A stretch of DNA of 61,884 bases, the filler included, from Planctomycetota bacterium (GTDB taxonomy: Bacteria; Planctomycetota; Planctomycetia; JALXBF01), in assembly GCA_026991575.1 (NCBI GenBank). It is 5 parts of 5 records of this genome, joined end to end, with 100 filler letters (N's around TTAATTAATTAA, not from the genome) between each part and the next. Parts side by side here need not be neighbours in the genome. Positions count along the whole stretch, not along the records: positions 1 to 17,518 come from JALXBF010000103.1; 4 more parts are not named here. One strand, written 5' to 3'. This document shows positions 2,935 to 44,517 of the stretch, piece after piece (the first letter of the stretch is position 1; the number at the start of each line of letters is the position of its first letter). The notes under the pieces are model-generated. The model saw only the letters and a list, made by a program, of their open reading frames with translations. It was not told the origin of the DNA and made no database searches. A program made the position numbers and the translations under genes.

Positions 2935-3576
2935 TCAGGCGGACGTCGCCTTGGTGCGTCTAGAGCGGCGCCTGCGCGTGCCGGTGCGGGCTGTGGTCAC
3001 CGCCGGCGCCTCCACGTCGACCAGCTTGCAAATCCGGGCCACCAGTTCCTCGATGTCGAACGGCTTCGCCAGGAAATCATTGGCACCAGCCTTCTTCAGC
3101 TCGCCCACCTTGCGCCGCTCGACCATGCCGCTTATGCAGAGGATCTTGACCCCCTTGAGCTTTTCGTCGCTACGCAACCGCCGGCACACTTCCTTGCCGT
3201 TGATGTCTGGCAGCATCACGTCGAGGACAACGACGTGGGGTTGGAAATCACGGACCAGCATGCCCGCGTCGAAGCCGGTGCTGGCCGACCGTACCAGAAA
3301 TCGCCCGTCACGTTCGAGGACTTCGGTGATCAGTTCCAGCAGGTCGGTGTCGTCATCGACGACGAGCACCTTGATCCGCCCCTCCTCCTCCAGCGCATCC
3401 ATCGGGATATTGTGCTCCTTCATGAAGCGGATCAGTTCCTCACGGGGGATGCGGCGGAAGCGGGAGCCGGGCACGCGGAAGCCGCGGAGTTGGCCGGAGT
3501 CAAAGCAGCGGATGATCGTCTGCTGGCTGACCTTGCAAATCCTTGCAGCCTCACCGGTGGTGTAGACTTCTTTCAT
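2935..3576 (-). CDS. Response regulator with N-terminal excisionase-like HTH and C-terminal receiver domain
   Basis: YTTGEAARICKVSQQTIIRCFD HTH; VLVVDDD...VVLDVMLP...FLAKPF receiver; GGGAG upstream of ATG 3576. Confidence 0.9.
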   Translation of the reverse strand: MKEVYTTGEAARICKVSQQTIIRCFDSGQLRGFRVPGSRFRRIPREELIRFMKEHNIPMDALEEEGRIKVLVVDDDTDLLELITEVLERDGRFLVRSASTGFDAGMLVRDFQPHVVVLDVMLPDINGKEVCRRLRSDEKLKGVKILCISGMVERRKVGELKKAGANDFLAKPFDIEELVARICKLVDVEAPAVTTARTGTRRRRSRRTKATSA

Positions 3577-3921
3577 GGCTCCCATCCACGAGCGGTCCTG
3601 TCAGTGGGGGAACCTCCCCCGGCCAGGTGGTCCAGACACGGCACGGTCCGGTCAGATCTGCCCAAATCCGACACAGGCCGATTCTAGAAACCGCCCCTCT
3701 TGCTGTCAAGCTCGGCTTTGCCCAGGATAACCTGCTTCTGCATCTTGCCCAGTTGCCGAGCTGGTGTGCTCCGGCCCCAGCGGCCCTCGCGGACAAGCTC
3801 GTCGCGTCACGAGCCCTTCACCGACGCTACGATGAAAGGGGACATCGCCTCACGAGGGTCGCTGTCGGCATTGCCCCGAGCCGGGCGGACCGGCGCGGGA
3901 AGCAGAGAGGAGTGGCGATGC

Positions 3922-5232
3922 ATGAGCGAACCACATCATTCACCGCGTCCGCGGACGCAAGGACAAGCGATCGATGAACTGGCGCTGGCTCGCCTCCTGG
4001 TGGAACGCAAGCTTATCACCAAGGAGGACGCCGAGCGTTGTCTAAAGTTGGTCCGTGAGGACCCGAACGCTTCAGGTAACGGCGCTGCGGCGTTGCTCCG
4101 CATACTGCACCGCGAGAAGCTGCTCTCAGCCAGCCACGTGCAACGACTGGCCAAAGAACTGCTCGACAAGCCAGTGGGCGTGCCGCGGAAACTGCCCGGC
4201 TACGAACTGCTCGAACTAATCGGCCGCGGCTCAATGGGCGTCGTCTTCAAGGCACGCCAGCTCAGCATGGACCGCATCGTCGCCGTCAAGATCCTGCGCC
4301 GCGAACTGGCCTCGAACCGGGAGTTCATCGAGCGGTTCCACCGCGAAGCGAAAATCGCCGCCAAGCTGTCGCACAACAACATCGTCCAGGCGATCGACTC
4401 CGGCGAGTACCAGGGTTACCACTACTTCGTCATGGAGTACGTGGATGGAACGAACATCAAGGCCGAACTGGATTCGGGCAAGGTGTACAGCGAAAAGGAG
4501 GCCCTGGAAATCATCCTTCAGGTTGCCCATGCCCTCGCACACGCTCACAGCCGCGGTCTGGTGCACCGCGACATCAAACCGGAAAACATCATGCTCACCC
4601 GCGAACGCGTGCCCAAGCTCGCCGACCTCGGTCTAGCCCGCCTCAGCCACGGTGACCCGATGGCACAGGCCGAGAAAGGCATCGCCATCGGTACGCCCTA
4701 CTACATCTCGCCCGAACAGATCCGCGGCCAGGTCGACATCGACATCCGGGCCGACATCTACGCGCTGGGCGCGACGCTGTACCACATGGTCACCGGCCGA
4801 GTCCCCTTCCCCGGTACGAACCCGGTGGAAGTCATGAAGAAACACCTGCACCAGCCCCTCGTCCCCCCTGACCACATCAACCAGAACCTCTCCAGCGGAC
4901 TGGGCGAGGTGGTTGAGAAGGCTATGGCCAAGCGACGGGAGGACCGCTACCAGAGTCCGCAGGAACTGATCACCGACCTAGAACGATTGCTTGCCGGACA
5001 GCCCCCGTTGCTGGCGCGGGAGCAGTACAACGTGACCGCTCTGGCAGAGCTCGAGCAACAGGGCGTGGCCGTTGACGAAGCTACCGTACCCAATGGGGCC
5101 GCCACTGCCCGTCGGCTCGCCCGACTGCAGCAGCTCGAGCAGCAGCTAACCTTCTGGCGCACGCTTGCCCTGCTCGCCGGTGCCCTCTTCCTGGGCTCGC
5201 TGCTGCTGAACATCCTCCTGCTGCTCCGGTAG
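3922..5232 (+). CDS. Hanks-type Ser/Thr protein kinase with C-terminal TM helix
   Basis: IGRGSMGVV, VAVK, HRDIKPEN, DLG, GTPYYISPE; hydrophobic C-terminus; GAGGAG before ATG 3922 (upstream in-frame starts exist). Confidence 0.93.
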   Translation: MSEPHHSPRPRTQGQAIDELALARLLVERKLITKEDAERCLKLVREDPNASGNGAAALLRILHREKLLSASHVQRLAKELLDKPVGVPRKLPGYELLELIGRGSMGVVFKARQLSMDRIVAVKILRRELASNREFIERFHREAKIAAKLSHNNIVQAIDSGEYQGYHYFVMEYVDGTNIKAELDSGKVYSEKEALEIILQVAHALAHAHSRGLVHRDIKPENIMLTRERVPKLADLGLARLSHGDPMAQAEKGIAIGTPYYISPEQIRGQVDIDIRADIYALGATLYHMVTGRVPFPGTNPVEVMKKHLHQPLVPPDHINQNLSSGLGEVVEKAMAKRREDRYQSPQELITDLERLLAGQPPLLAREQYNVTALAELEQQGVAVDEATVPNGAATARRLARLQQLEQQLTFWRTLALLAGALFLGSLLLNILLLLR

Positions 5233-5243
5233 CGAATGGACTA

Positions 5244-5281
5244 TCGCATTTTGCAACACCTGCGTAGCGGAATGAAACAGT
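5244..5281 (+). promoter_or_regulatory. Putative enhancer-binding-protein UAS, tandem boxes (copy 1)
   Basis: GCATTTTGCAACACC (5246-5260) and TGAAACA (5273-5279), 21 bp apart; matched by the boxes at 42502-42537. Confidence 0.55.
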
Positions 5282-5355: not shown

Positions 5356-5371
5356 TGGCACGAGGATTGCA
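5356..5371 (+). promoter_or_regulatory. Sigma-54 (-24/-12) promoter
   Basis: TGGCACG-AGGA-TTGCA, exact TGGCACG-N4-TTGCW consensus in an intergenic region. Confidence 0.85.
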
Positions 5372-5381
5372 GTAGCCTTCT

Positions 5382-5455
5382 AGTGCCGCGGAACCCAGCG
5401 ACAGCGACCCCATGCCGCTCAGGCCCGTGCCCCCTCCACGGGCCTGAGTTTTTTT
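5382..5455 (+). ncRNA. Candidate sigma-54-dependent small RNA, copy 1 (~74 nt)
   Basis: Begins 12 nt after the -12 GC; near-identical to 42308-42380 (minus); ends in a terminator hairpin plus T7. Confidence 0.7.
5418..5455 (+). terminator. Intrinsic terminator
   Basis: CTCAGGCCCGTG-CCCCCTC-CACGGGCCTGAG (12-bp stem) followed by TTTTTTT. Confidence 0.85.
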
Positions 5456-5594: not shown

Positions 5595-6998
5595 GTGCAG
5601 GAAACACGACGTGCTCTGGCACGCCGCGGGCTGCTGCTAGGCACTGCCCTAGGGTTGCTTGCGGCCCTCTACCTGGGCATCGTGCCGAAGCTTCCCGACA
5701 GCTCACCACTGCGCCGCTACCTGGCAAACCACCCGATCGAGCAGTGGACGGTGGCGTTGTTCCTGATCGGCGTCGCGATGCTCGTTGATCGTGCCCTCCA
5801 GACGTTCAGCGAACGAAAAGCCCTGCGTTGGCTGCGTCGCAACGGCGTCGGGTCGGACCGTGGCAGCAACGGCCTCGTTGAGCAGGTGCGTCGCGGATTA
5901 CCGCCGTCGGTTGCCCGGTCGCTGGCCGGCAGACGGGCCGCCGAATTGCTGCGGGCCGACGGTAGCCCGCGTGCCCGCGACGAGTACCTGGAACTCGTAC
6001 GCGACCTGGCCGAGCTGGATGCCCAGGCGCTGGAGCGACGTGGTACGGGACTAAGGTTCATCACCTGGGCGATCCCCATCTTCGGCTTCCTCGGCACCGT
6101 GCTCGGCATCACCGCAGCCATCGCGCACGTCACCCCCGAGCAGCTGCAGCGATCCCTGAGCGAAGTGACCGGTGGCCTTGCGGTCGCGTTCGACACGACC
6201 GCCTTGGCGCTGGCCCTGTCCGTGGTGCTGATGGCAGGCAACTTCGCGGTGGACCGTTTCGAACGCGCGACCCTGGCCGAAGCGGACGGCTTTGCCCGTT
6301 TCCAGCTCGCAGGTCTTCTTAGTGATCCACGTGGTTCAGACCCGGTCGTGCACCGAGTCGAACAGGTGACTGCTGCCGTGATGGAGGCGACCCAGAGGGC
6401 CTGGGACCAACAGCGACAAGCCTGGAGCGAGACGGTCCAGCACGTTGCCGAGGCCCAGGTGCGCATGCTCCAAGAGGCTGTCAGCCGCACTCTCGAACAG
6501 CTTCGCCTGCACGCCGTCCGCCAGCAGGAGCAGTGGGGGCAAGCTGTGGAGGCCGGTTGCAACCAGCTCGGCGCGCAGATCGCTCAGGCCACCAACGCGC
6601 TGAGCAGCCAGCTTCAGCGCACGGCCCAGTCGCTTGCCGACGCGTTGCACGGTGCGACGCAACAGAGCCAGCAGCAGCTTGGCCTGCTCCATGATGCGCT
6701 GGCTGCTCATGCCGAGCGGCTCAACAGCTACATCGGCCAGCTACAGGCTGCCGGCGCAACGGCGCGTGACGTGATGCAACGGCTCGAGCAGGTGGCGCGC
6801 AGCTTCGTGGCGATGACCGACAAGGCCGAACAGCTCTCCCAGCTCCAGCGTACGCTGGCCCAAAACATCGAGTTCCTGGTCCAGAGTGGCAAGCTCGACG
6901 AGACGCTCAACACGCTCACGGCCGCCGTGCATCTGCTGACGGCCCGGACCGCTTCGACCGGCATCGGGCCGGGCACACCGCACAGGGAGGCAGCTTGA
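5595..6998 (+). CDS. MotA/TolQ/ExbB proton-channel family protein with long C-terminal helical tail
   Basis: ITWAIPIFGFLGTVLGIT...GGLAVAFDTTALAL channel motifs; Gln/Ala-rich tail. Start GTG 5595 after GGAGG (alternative ATG 5562). Confidence 0.85.
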   Translation: MQETRRALARRGLLLGTALGLLAALYLGIVPKLPDSSPLRRYLANHPIEQWTVALFLIGVAMLVDRALQTFSERKALRWLRRNGVGSDRGSNGLVEQVRRGLPPSVARSLAGRRAAELLRADGSPRARDEYLELVRDLAELDAQALERRGTGLRFITWAIPIFGFLGTVLGITAAIAHVTPEQLQRSLSEVTGGLAVAFDTTALALALSVVLMAGNFAVDRFERATLAEADGFARFQLAGLLSDPRGSDPVVHRVEQVTAAVMEATQRAWDQQRQAWSETVQHVAEAQVRMLQEAVSRTLEQLRLHAVRQQEQWGQAVEAGCNQLGAQIAQATNALSSQLQRTAQSLADALHGATQQSQQQLGLLHDALAAHAERLNSYIGQLQAAGATARDVMQRLEQVARSFVAMTDKAEQLSQLQRTLAQNIEFLVQSGKLDETLNTLTAAVHLLTARTASTGIGPGTPHREAA

Positions 6999-40973: not shown

Positions 40974-42131
40974 CTACTGGCTGCGGCCCAGACCAACGAC
41001 GGCCGCGGCCGGCACGCGCGTGAATGCAATCGTCTCATATGGATGGCTTTTGCCGGCTTCCCAGAGTACGCCCACCGCACCGTGTTCCAGGAGAACAAGG
41101 TTGGAGTACGCAGCGGGTCCCCTACCCACGAGCAGCTCGCCCCGAAACGACCGGCACTGGTCCGTACTTACCCGAAGAATCAGATCACGCCGGCCCGGGC
41201 CCCGCGGACCGGACCAGACGTACCAGCTGCCGGCCCCCTTCGGCGTCGGGTAGCGCAACAGTCCGGTGCAGACCGGCGTCACGGTCAGCCCGGGTCGCGG
41301 ATCTTGCCAGTGAATCCCGCCGTCGGGACTTTCCGCCAGCCATCGATGCGGCGTACCACCCTCCTGACGCGCATCGACGAGGATGTGGCCGTTGTCGAGC
41401 TCGACCATTTGATTCTCGTTGCAGTTGACCGCCAGCCACTCGCCACGCTGCCAACTCTTGCCACCGTCGTCGCTGATCAGCGCAAAAGCGGCTCGCCAGA
41501 TCGGATGGGACCGGGGTCGCTGCCCGTAGGCGGGCACAATCAGTCGCCCGGAGCTGGCTTGAATGCCTGAGCCTGGTCCGAAAACGACGTTGTGCCAGTG
41601 AGCCACGTCCCTGGCGACTGTGGTGATGTCAATCGGATCGGACCAGCTCAAGCCGTTGTCGTCGCTGTAGCGGAAGTACGCCTCATTGTCACGCGTTCCG
41701 ACCCGGCTATTGCTGGCCCCCTTGCCCGGGCGCCACCGATTGAAGAAGACGAACACACGACCGGTCCGCTGATCGACGACGGCGGTCGGATTGGAAGCGG
41801 CCCATCCTTCGTGCGACCGGTCCACATAGCGCAACGAGCTCCAGCTCTTGCCACCGTCACGACTGAGTTTGTACACCAGATTGATGTGACCCCCACCGGG
41901 ATCGTGCAGATTGTCGCGGCGTCCTTCGGCAAAGGCCAGCAGCGTGCCGTCGGCGGTGCGGACGATCGCCGGGATCCGGTACGCGAAATGGCCTTCCGTT
42001 CCGGAACGGAACACAACGATGCGCTCCGTAACCGTCTGGCCGAGTGCGTCGGGCGCGGCGGGGGCACTCAGCAAGCAGGCCGCAAGCGCCAGGATGGTGA
42101 TCACGTGTGTGCTGAAACTCAGATGACGCAT
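40974..42131 (-). CDS. Secreted sialidase-family (GH33, BNR/Asp-box) protein
   Basis: YRIP motif; Asp-boxes SRDGGKSW, SDDNGLSW, SDDGGKSW, SPDGGIHW; NENQ, AAYS; signal peptide. Confidence 0.9.
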   Translation of the reverse strand: MRHLSFSTHVITILALAACLLSAPAAPDALGQTVTERIVVFRSGTEGHFAYRIPAIVRTADGTLLAFAEGRRDNLHDPGGGHINLVYKLSRDGGKSWSSLRYVDRSHEGWAASNPTAVVDQRTGRVFVFFNRWRPGKGASNSRVGTRDNEAYFRYSDDNGLSWSDPIDITTVARDVAHWHNVVFGPGSGIQASSGRLIVPAYGQRPRSHPIWRAAFALISDDGGKSWQRGEWLAVNCNENQMVELDNGHILVDARQEGGTPHRWLAESPDGGIHWQDPRPGLTVTPVCTGLLRYPTPKGAGSWYVWSGPRGPGRRDLILRVSTDQCRSFRGELLVGRGPAAYSNLVLLEHGAVGVLWEAGKSHPYETIAFTRVPAAAVVGLGRSQ

Positions 42132-42307: not shown

Positions 42308-42348
42308 AAAAAAAGCTCAGGCCCGTGGAGGGGGCACGGGCCTGAAGC
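42308..42348 (-). terminator. Intrinsic terminator
   Basis: Minus strand GCTTCAGGCCCGTG-CCCCCTC-CACGGGCCTGAGC-TTTTTTT. Confidence 0.85.
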
Positions 42349-42380
42349 ATCGGGTCGCTGTCGCTGGGTTCCGCGGCACT
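42308..42380 (-). ncRNA. Candidate sigma-54-dependent small RNA, copy 2 (~73 nt)
   Basis: Near-identical to 5382-5455; starts 11 nt after the -12 GC; ends in hairpin plus T7. Confidence 0.7.
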
Positions 42381-42500: not shown

Positions 42501-42539
42501 TGGTGTTCAATAATGGAGCAGCGGTGTTTCAAAATGCTG
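42501..42539 (-). promoter_or_regulatory. Putative enhancer-binding-protein UAS, tandem boxes (copy 2)
   Basis: Minus strand GCATTTTGAAACACC (42537-42523) and CCATTATTGAACACC (42516-42502), 21 bp apart. Confidence 0.55.
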
Positions 42540-42738
42540 CGCTTTGGCTGCCTCGGCCGGCTTCGCCCGGCGAGGGCATCAGGACCGAGGGGGTAGGCGG
42601 GCAGAGTCTGCGGCCAGGTCTGGCCGTCGGTGGCGGGCCTAGAATTGGTCGCGTACCGTCCGTTGCGCAGCGGCCCGCCGAGCAGTCAACCGCGGCGCGC
42701 TGGCGGCCGTGCTGGCTTAGGCTCTGGAGGACCTCCCC

Positions 42739-44517
42739 GTGCGCTGGTCCAAGGCGTTTGTTCCTACGTTGAAGGAAGTTCCGGCTGAGGCTGAGATCGC
42801 AAGCCACCAGCTCATGCTGCGTGCCGGCCTGATCCGCAAGCTTTCCGCCGGTGCCTACACCTACCTACCCCTCGGGTTCCGCTCGTTGCTGAAGACCGTG
42901 GAGATCATCCGGGACGAAATGAACGCGACCGGGGCCCAGGAGATCCTGATGCCTGCCATTCAGCCGGCGGAGCTTTGGGAAGAAAGTGGCCGGATGAAGG
43001 ATTATGGCCCGCTGTTGATGCAGTTCAAGGACCGTGCTGGCCGACACACGGTCCTGGGGCCGACGCACGAGGAGGTCGTCACGGACCTGGTCCGCAACCA
43101 TGTCAGCAGCTACCGGCAGCTACCGCTGATCCTGTACCAGATCCAGACCAAGTTTCGCGACGAGATCCGGCCGCGATTCGGCGTGCTCCGCAGCCGCGAG
43201 TTCTTGATGAAGGATGCCTACAGCTTCGACGTCGACCTGGACGGCCTGAATCGCAGCTACGAGGCCATGTACCGCGCGTATTGCCGGATCTTTGAGCGGT
43301 GCGGACTGGACTTCGTTGTGGTGGAAGCGGAGAGTGGGCCCATTGGAGGCGACGTGTCGCACGAGTTCATGGTGCCCAGCGATGCTGGCGAAGACATCCT
43401 GCTGCAATGTAGTGCCTGTTCCTATGCGGCCAATGCCGAACGAGCCGAAGTGGGACTGCCCGAGCAGCTCAAGCAGCGGCTGCACCAGCCCCGTACTGTT
43501 TCCGACGTGCCGGCCGTGCAGAAGGTTGACACGCCGGGGCGTACGACGATCGAGCAGGTCAGTGCCTTCTTGAACTGCCGGCCTGAACAAATGATCAAGA
43601 CGCTGATCTACCTGGCTGACGGGCAGCCTGTTGCAGTCTTGATCCGCGGTGACCACGAGGCGAACGAGGCGAAGATCCGCCGTGCGTTGGGGGTGAGCGA
43701 GTTGTCGTTGGCCGATGCGGAGACGATCGAGCGGGTGACCGGTGCTCCGGTGGGCTTTGCCGGGCCAGTTGGCCTGAGCTGTCGCATCGTGGCGGACCGG
43801 GCGATTGCCGAGATCGAGGACGGCGTTACCGGAGCCAATGAAGCGGATGCTCACCTGGTGCACGTTGTGCCCGGCCGCGACTTCCCGTGGCCGGAGTTCC
43901 ACGACCTGCGAGTGGCGGTGCATGGGGACCCGTGCCCGCGCTGTGGCGCCGCGTTGCGTCAGCGGCGGGGCATTGAGGTTGGCCATGTTTTCAAGCTTGG
44001 CACGAAGTACTCTGAGGCGCTGGGGGCCTATTTCCTTGATGCCCATGAGCAGCGGCGGCCCGTGATTATGGGCTGCTACGGTATCGGTGTGAACCGGATC
44101 CTGGCCGCGCGCATCGAGACGCACCATGACGAGCATGGCATCATCTGGTCGACCACCATTGCACCGTACCGTGTGCTCGTGCTGCCGCTGGCTATGCAAA
44201 AGGAGCAGATCGTCCAGACGGCGGAGCGGATCTACGAAGAGTTGCGCCGCCGGGGCGTTGACGTGATCCTTGACGACCGCGACGCTCGCGCGGGTTTCAA
44301 GTTCAAGGACGCCGATCTGATCGGCTTCCCGCTTCGCATCGCCGTCGGGGAACGGGGCCTGAAGGAGGGGGTGGTTGAGTTGAAGTGGCGCGGCAGCGAC
44401 CAGGTCCAGAAGGTCCCCGTTGGCGAGGCGGTCGAGCGGGTGTTGGCCGAGCTCGACCGCGACGAGGCGGAGACGCAACGGCGCGTGGATCGTCACGGGC
44501 CTCCAATTGTGCGCTGA
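42739..44517 (+). CDS. proS: Proline--tRNA ligase (with editing domain)
   Basis: [52 protein letters not shown] before GTG. Confidence 0.97.

Follow-up and report, generated by a model that had tools for sequence, protein, structure and literature searches.

The window, that is the whole stretch of DNA analysed here (61,884 nt), derives from the genome of an uncultured planctomycete (G000; 4.96 Mb, 64% GC) and carries two copies of a short intergenic element, copy 1 on contig C103 and copy 2 on contig C113. Cytochrome domains of planctomycete type encoded in the window place it in Planctomycetia. Copy 1 is flanked by genes for a Ser/Thr protein kinase and a MotA/TolQ/ExbB-domain protein, copy 2 by genes for a BNR-repeat sialidase-like protein and a proline-tRNA ligase (Table 1). 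Divergently from the kinase gene, a response regulator with HTH and receiver domains is encoded (2938-3585, minus strand).

Table 1. Features of the two element copies and their surroundings (positions in the window)
Feature	Position	Strand	Remarks
Ser/Thr protein kinase gene	3700..5232	+	context; upstream of copy 1
Enhancer-like 17-bp palindrome, distal, copy 1	5242..5258		score 9.9; matrix trained on non-G000 copies
Enhancer-like 17-bp palindrome, proximal, copy 1	5263..5279		score 16.5; 21 bp from distal site
Sigma-54 -24/-12 box, copy 1	5356-5371	+	TGGCACG-N4-TTGCA, perfect
Predicted 74-nt RNA, copy 1	5382..5455	+	putative transcript
5' core, 24 nt, copy 1	5387..5410	+	invariant in 7/7 short copies
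AGCGACCC(C/G)(G/A)U motif, copy 1	5403..5413	+	common to short and long forms
Intrinsic terminator, copy 1	5417..5455	+	found by terminator scan at 5417-5449; CCCCCUC loop 5430-5436 conserved; U-tract
MotA/TolQ/ExbB-domain protein gene	5595..6998	+	context; downstream of copy 1
BNR-repeat sialidase-like protein gene	40974..42131	-	context; downstream of copy 2
Predicted 72-73-nt RNA, copy 2	42308..42380	-	putative transcript; terminator 42346-42316
Sigma-54 -24/-12 box, copy 2	42405-42390	-	TGGCACG-N4-TTGCA, perfect
Enhancer-like palindrome, proximal, copy 2	42504..42520		score 7.1
Enhancer-like palindrome, distal, copy 2	42525..42541		score 16.1; 21 bp from proximal site
Proline-tRNA ligase gene	42739..44517	+	context; divergent, upstream of copy 2

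Predicted promoters, RNAs and terminators of the two window copies

A first-pass annotation of the window had described a repeat of about 74 nt with identical blocks of 29 and 30 nt on two contigs, and we could reproduce its coordinates (5382-5410 matching 42380-42352, and 5419-5448 matching 42345-42316). Its observation that identity begins at the +1 of a perfect sigma-54 promoter also held: when the C of TTGC is taken as position -12, transcription is predicted to start at 5382 in copy 1 and at 42379 in copy 2. Perfect boxes of this type occur 16 times in G000, as compared to 2.6 expected. The annotation let the element end in a terminator with U7. Both terminators were indeed found, each consisting of a hairpin of 12-13 bp and U7, but in copy 2 an additional C separates the stem from the U-tract. 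The predicted RNAs fold more stably than expected (z = -3.55 for copy 1 and -2.52 for copy 2); this stability resides wholly in the terminator, the 5' half by itself yielding a z of 0.23. The 5' core is laid out as a 3-bp hairpin with GGAACCCA loop, followed by two AGCGAC motifs.

Comparison with Rfam, proposed in the first-pass annotation, yielded no match to a known family: nothing reached the gathering score within the window, where seven sub-threshold matches fell on copy 1, and there was none on the RNAs of 11 loci. BLASTN searches of G000 with copy 1 retrieved copy 2 (E 3e-27) and a third copy (E 1.6e-5). Short matches in RHS-repeat and Ser/Asp-repeat coding DNA were dismissed as same-sense chance hits. 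As a separate observation, G000 contains ten near-identical RHS/YD-repeat gene fragments, many of them at contig ends (C16, C21, C26, C44, C77, C86, C92, C118, C173 and C179).

A family of predicted short and long RNAs found in a single order

The third G000 copy lies behind a perfect sigma-54 box of its own and is extended in its 5' part, giving a predicted RNA of about 110 nt. Thus, there are three copies in G000, and the copy-number survey suggested in the first-pass annotation could be extended to the other genomes of the order: G001, which represents a different genus and is the only other genome of the taxonomic family, has six (five short, one long), and G002 and G003, the latter genome being 80% complete, have one long copy each. 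Short forms measure about 74 nt and long forms 110-130 nt. Two of the short copies in G001 are arranged in tandem, 420 nt apart (L034:2585-3106), and both have a promoter and palindromes of their own. In G000-G003, as well as at two metagenome loci (L142, L155), the long copy and uvrB are arranged divergently, with a comEA-like gene in between in G000 and G003, both genomes in which this was tested. In 26 other Planctomycetia, the uvrB locus showed no long copy.

Among 50 metagenome loci matching the family pattern, ten were real, six of them repeats of copies already known; the additions are two complete members (L142, L155), one that is cut off (L112) and a distant one (L128), whose RNA would be 334 nt long if a distant box is its promoter. 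The latter (L128:1501-1860, minus strand) carries a second AGCGACCC motif, and its neighbouring gene looks comEA-like by eye. In a species-wide genome collection, 7 of 26 pattern loci were real and all repeated known copies. The remaining 40 metagenome and 19 genome loci, together with all four viral ones, were dropped for lack of either a hairpin with open C-loop or a promoter. A search of 150 genomes of the class with model R3 matched six, comprising the four of the order (E < 1e-12) and two that proved to be generic terminators. Matches of model R1 in 15 genomes outside the order, and a weak second match in G003, turned out on inspection to lie in coding DNA or to be generic terminators. 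The exact pattern, searched in 401 genomes of the phylum drawn without G001-G003, matched in G000 only. Within the genomes searched, members of the family were hence found in no other order.

Conserved single strands and covarying stems

A GG-N10-GC sigma-54 box with no more than two mismatches precedes each of the 13 complete copies, although spacers vary, and all 13 end in an intrinsic terminator. AGCGACCC and CCCCUC are retained in short and long forms alike. In the terminator stem, 9 of 14 pairs are changed on both sides and 92% of cells pair; slid alignments reached no more than 54%, and none of 500 shuffles attained 92%, a result that is not to be taken as a probability since the set comprises 11-13 related sequences. 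The C-loop is predicted to be unpaired (p >= 0.8 at every position) in 13 of 14 members, whereas accessibility of AGCGACCC differs among them. One strong hairpin is predicted for the short form. A CCCUC/CCUCC loop is found in only three of the 62 strong terminator-like sites of G000, namely the family members. A look at covariation, as recommended in the first-pass annotation, thus reveals covarying terminator stems next to a fixed single-stranded 5' core and CCCCUC loop; because unpaired sequence is fixed while paired sequence varies, this is the pattern to be expected of a functional RNA.

A predicted shared upstream enhancer and its occurrence in a phage contig

According to the first-pass annotation, promoter spacers and flanks differ between the copies. 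Spacers do vary and flanks are unalignable, but the latter have short enhancer-like palindromes in common. The 12-mer ATTTTG(A/C)AACAC occurs three times in G000 (0.07 expected), once ahead of each of the three promoters at a distance of 96-118 nt. Since it had been chosen from those same three copies, the motif was relearned from outside G000: from 10 upstream regions of non-G000 copies, a palindromic sampler derived TGTATCA-N3-TGATACA with a score of 155.5, as compared to at most 124.4 for 15 shuffled and at most 130.0 for 15 intergenic sets, motif width and palindromic form having been picked after viewing all upstream regions including those of G000. The resulting matrix ranks the window copies 3rd and 4th among 117 sigma-54-like sites of G000, with a background probability of 0.0004 for a best score of at least 16.1; the long G000 copy ranks 18th (background P 0.04). 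Tandem palindrome pairs spaced by 21 bp occur three times in G000, that is at copy 1, at copy 2 and on contig C9.

The gene for sigma-54, rpoN, was found in three of the four genomes, the exception being the 80% complete one. In G000, rpoN is convergent with a csrA gene about 250 bp away (C36; L159:4290-6353). This genome encodes 16 strong activator-domain proteins, among which no single candidate stood out, and PF00158 matches were absent from every contig bearing a copy.

The C9 site (G000:C9:20336-20536; L158:8337-8537) consists of a pair of TTGCA-N3-TGCAA palindromes, spaced by 21 bp and flanked by two perfect sigma-54 boxes in divergent orientation; the palindromes are the two best matches of the enhancer matrix in the whole of G000. 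The 30-kb contig carries phage head, tail and replication genes, and its left promoter points to a small HTH ORF and the replication side. One could imagine a hitherto undescribed Qrr-like circuit of planctomycetes, with one enhancer-binding protein that acts on hardly anything but these RNAs and a resident phage that has captured its enhancer, so that the host signal inducing the sRNAs would also drive the phage's early decision. We regard this as a rather doubtful scenario; alternatively, a phage protein may use the palindromes as its operators. Relatives of the 351-aa phage protein were not found among viral contigs, and our literature search returned no report of a phage exploiting a host sigma-54 enhancer in this manner. 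Six viral matches to the tandem palindrome were rejected as iteron-like repeats lacking sigma-54 boxes; they are 21-bp TGTTTCA-N3-TGAAACA repeats on six contigs (L214-L219), apparently within coding DNA.

A probable free-standing RNA gene rather than a leader, a mobile repeat or a small ORF

Whatever its mechanism, the element is very probably a sigma-54-transcribed small RNA gene; transcription of the family members is predicted from their promoters and terminators. The first-pass annotation had likewise proposed a sigma-54-driven, self-terminating, multicopy sRNA, and the comparative data across the order support it. It had also offered a cis-acting attenuator of the downstream gene as an alternative and suggested looking at whether gene orientation is fixed, as for a leader, or random. 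All three copies in G000 and one in G001 are indeed co-oriented with the next protein gene, a consensus scan of the stretch from terminator to gene detected no sigma-70 promoter at either window copy, and the weakly similar atoC RNA (see below) is classed as cis-regulatory. However, a fixed orientation was not seen: among the 13 complete copies, five face a convergent gene, one of them ending 7 nt from its stop codon, as compared to four with a co-oriented protein gene, while one precedes a tRNA and one another copy, two cases being unresolved. The four co-oriented genes belong to four unrelated families, and the G001 orthologues of both window copies' neighbours lack the element. A leader function thus appears highly unlikely.

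We hold it to be just as improbable that the element is a selfish or passively dispersed repeat (a MITE, a REP-like sequence or a mobile promoter-terminator cassette) with no function at the RNA level. The short copies do occupy genus-specific, non-orthologous sites in G000 and G001, and the three G001 sites that were checked are all empty in G000, two of them lying between genes that are adjacent there; with two genomes compared, this may reflect either separate gain or differential loss. Against this stand the low number of 3-6 copies per genome, flanks without alignable sequence (local scores of at most 25 over 300 nt), the retention of GG/GC, +1 spacing and enhancer sites despite freely varying spacers, the covariation of the stems and the persistence of one copy next to uvrB across two taxonomic families. 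Terminal inverted repeats are not visible in the copy alignment, in line with the initial description. The least credible option is an mRNA for a short peptide. Copy 1 contains an 11-codon ORF (ATG at 5412), but this ATG is not preceded by a ribosome-binding site, start codons in copy 2 are in other frames, and the five short copies of G001 have no complete ORF, which agrees with the first-pass statement that the copies share none. Because orientations vary, sites are genus-specific and flanks are unalignable, the data speak against leaders and block duplication; they favour free-standing genes that spread and were then retained by selection.

Possible pairing with mRNAs or titration of a protein

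How the RNAs act is a matter of prediction. We give about an even chance to trans-acting sibling sRNAs, governed by one enhancer-binding protein and pairing through C-rich segments without a chaperone. In this model, a single bacterial enhancer-binding protein would bind the tandem 17-bp palindromes (TGTWKCA-N3-TGMWACA) 100-200 bp upstream of every copy and activate sigma-54 RNA polymerase there, and transcription would stop at the terminator belonging to that copy. The single copy of 110-130 nt beside comEA-uvrB is the probable ancestor, from which a 5'-shortened 74-nt form may have spread to new sites in one taxonomic family, thereby increasing dosage. The RNAs would pair in trans without Hfq, presumably through exposed C-rich segments (AGCGACCCCGU and the CCCCUC terminator loop) contacting G-rich stretches of mRNAs, and block translation. 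Promoter, terminator covariation, copy number, synteny, the common palindrome and the lack of a shared ORF can be read from the sequences, whereas transcription, a single activator, the direction of evolution, and base-pairing with its targets are inferred.

Hfq (PF17209) was found in none of the four genomes of the order, the positive control matching in 5 of 14, and ProQ likewise in none of the four. The CCCCUC loop is complementary to GGAGG-type ribosome-binding sites, which are indicated by the 16S tail and by start-site hexamers; the hexamer counts are partly circular since such sites were scored in gene calling, but the 16S tail points the same way. The best duplexes with 3,317 start regions and with 4,058 candidate starts had energies inside the range obtained for shuffled cores, and the geometry of combined anti-SD and anti-start-codon pairing was not enriched. 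The top duplex match lies within the coding sequence of an ABC permease, in a leucine-rich part. GGAGGGG is the rarest of the 16 GGAGGNN heptamers at start sites (14/727), an effect that becomes marginal once genome frequency is counted. When 49 G001 loci (of 118 matches) were tested for conserved G-rich starts, none of the six mappable ORFs with a GGAGGGG start kept the motif in G000.

The main rival to mRNA pairing is titration of CsrA. In this case, the same genes under the same transcriptional control would produce RNAs whose GGA, placed in the 5' hairpin loop of the short form, sequesters CsrA, or whose AGCGAC sequesters another RNA-binding protein; additional copies would increase sponge capacity. 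Recognition of GGA hairpins by CsrA is stated in PMC13443453. The four genomes carry 2, 2, 3 and 6 CsrA genes, the GGA-loop hairpin is invariant in all seven short copies, AGCGAC is doubled in the short form, and the mRNA target search came back empty. FliW, the protein antagonist of CsrA, was found in G002 but in neither G000 nor G001, the two genomes that have flagellin and an expanded short form; this pattern rests on two lineages, G003 being incomplete. Each of G000 and G001 has two csrA genes alongside flagellin, and in G002 fliW lies beside csrA (G002:C65:2688-3332), flagellin not having been found there. Sponges of the CsrB/RsmZ type carry many GGA motifs, and CsrA prefers ANGGA. Here, GGA occurs just once in six of the seven short copies and ANGGA is absent from all seven; one GGA not preceded by A would make a poor sponge. 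The GGA hairpin is missing from the long forms, and a sigma-54 box was not seen ahead of either csrA gene of G000. On the other hand, csrA is enriched among predicted sigma-54 targets in Planctomycetia, according to PMC12316311. Titration is a tentative alternative. Pairing with mRNAs is favoured because the open C-loop is complementary to the ribosome-binding site, and because precedents exist both for chaperone-free C-loops and in the form of the Pxr RNA.

Relation to known sRNA systems

The first-pass annotation had pointed to the Vibrio Qrr sRNAs, and this analogy is strengthened by the shared upstream enhancer. As for Qrr1-5, which are controlled by LuxO and sigma-54, there are dispersed siblings, each with sigma-54 box, own terminator and upstream palindromes, and the G000 palindromes resemble the LuxO consensus TTGCA-W3-TGCAA given in PMC11443567 and PMC10328515, the distal site of copy 1 (TCGCA-TTT-TGCAA) being one base apart from it. 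However, the matrix of the relatives reads TGTATCA-N3-TGATACA, and the LuxO-box likeness may merely reflect a common Fis-type DNA-binding geometry. Moreover, neither sequence nor structure matches the Qrr model of Rfam and no activator gene is present on any copy's contig. Qrr requires Hfq, which was not found in these four genomes, so the RNAs cannot work exactly as Qrr does.

Pxr of Myxococcus and Cystobacter, as described in PMC5568312, is similar in its sigma-54 promoter, its GC-rich host without Hfq, its lineage-specific paralogues and its length of about 110 nt. In contrast to Pxr, which lies directly downstream of its activator gene nla19 and forms three stem-loops, the copies described here are dispersed, have comEA-uvrB or varied neighbours rather than an adjacent activator, form one strong hairpin in the short version and match no Rfam model. 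Pairing of C-rich loops with G-rich start regions in the absence of a chaperone is reported, in the respective abstracts, for actinobacterial 6C RNA (PMC6486639), Listeria LhrC (PMC4132741) and Xanthomonas sX13 (PMC3771888). These share C-rich single-stranded segments with our family, and LhrC in addition is multicopy under one regulator; yet those abstracts make no mention of sigma-54 control, the Rfam models do not match, and pairing is a prediction in our case. The nearest relevant sub-threshold match is the deltaproteobacterial atoC RNA (RF01733), which has a terminator hairpin with CCCUCC loop and an upstream TTGC, but with 15.5 bits (E 5) stays below the gathering score of 50, belongs to a cis-regulatory class and lacks the AGCGACCC core. 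CsrB, RsmY and RsmZ resemble the family in being multicopy, in the presence of CsrA and in a GGA within a hairpin loop; the long copies here have 1-5 GGA. From MITE and REP elements, it differs in copy number, variable spacers and unalignable flanks. Thus, the family resembles Qrr, Pxr and LhrC in its working, but is a member of none of them, failing on model match in each case, and also on Hfq or on the adjacent activator.

Taken together, the element represents an undescribed RNA family in one uncultured planctomycete group, an sRNA of an already known kind with a predicted shared enhancer. No planctomycete sigma-54 sRNA was found in the literature searched, including passages of PMC12316311, PMC9029176 and PMC2864571, although motif lists outside Rfam may hold this RNA. 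The planctomycetes are nearly blank for regulatory RNAs, and a review of 2022 counts eight annotated sRNA families for the whole PVC group (PMC9029176). The present family would provide a complete predicted module of enhancer, promoter, RNA and terminator in genomes in which Hfq and ProQ were not found. If a single-copy sRNA indeed expanded into dispersed, shortened siblings under the same control sites, this would be an independent parallel to Qrr. The phage promoters may connect a host signal with phage gene expression, and knowledge of the enhancer sequence makes the activator findable.
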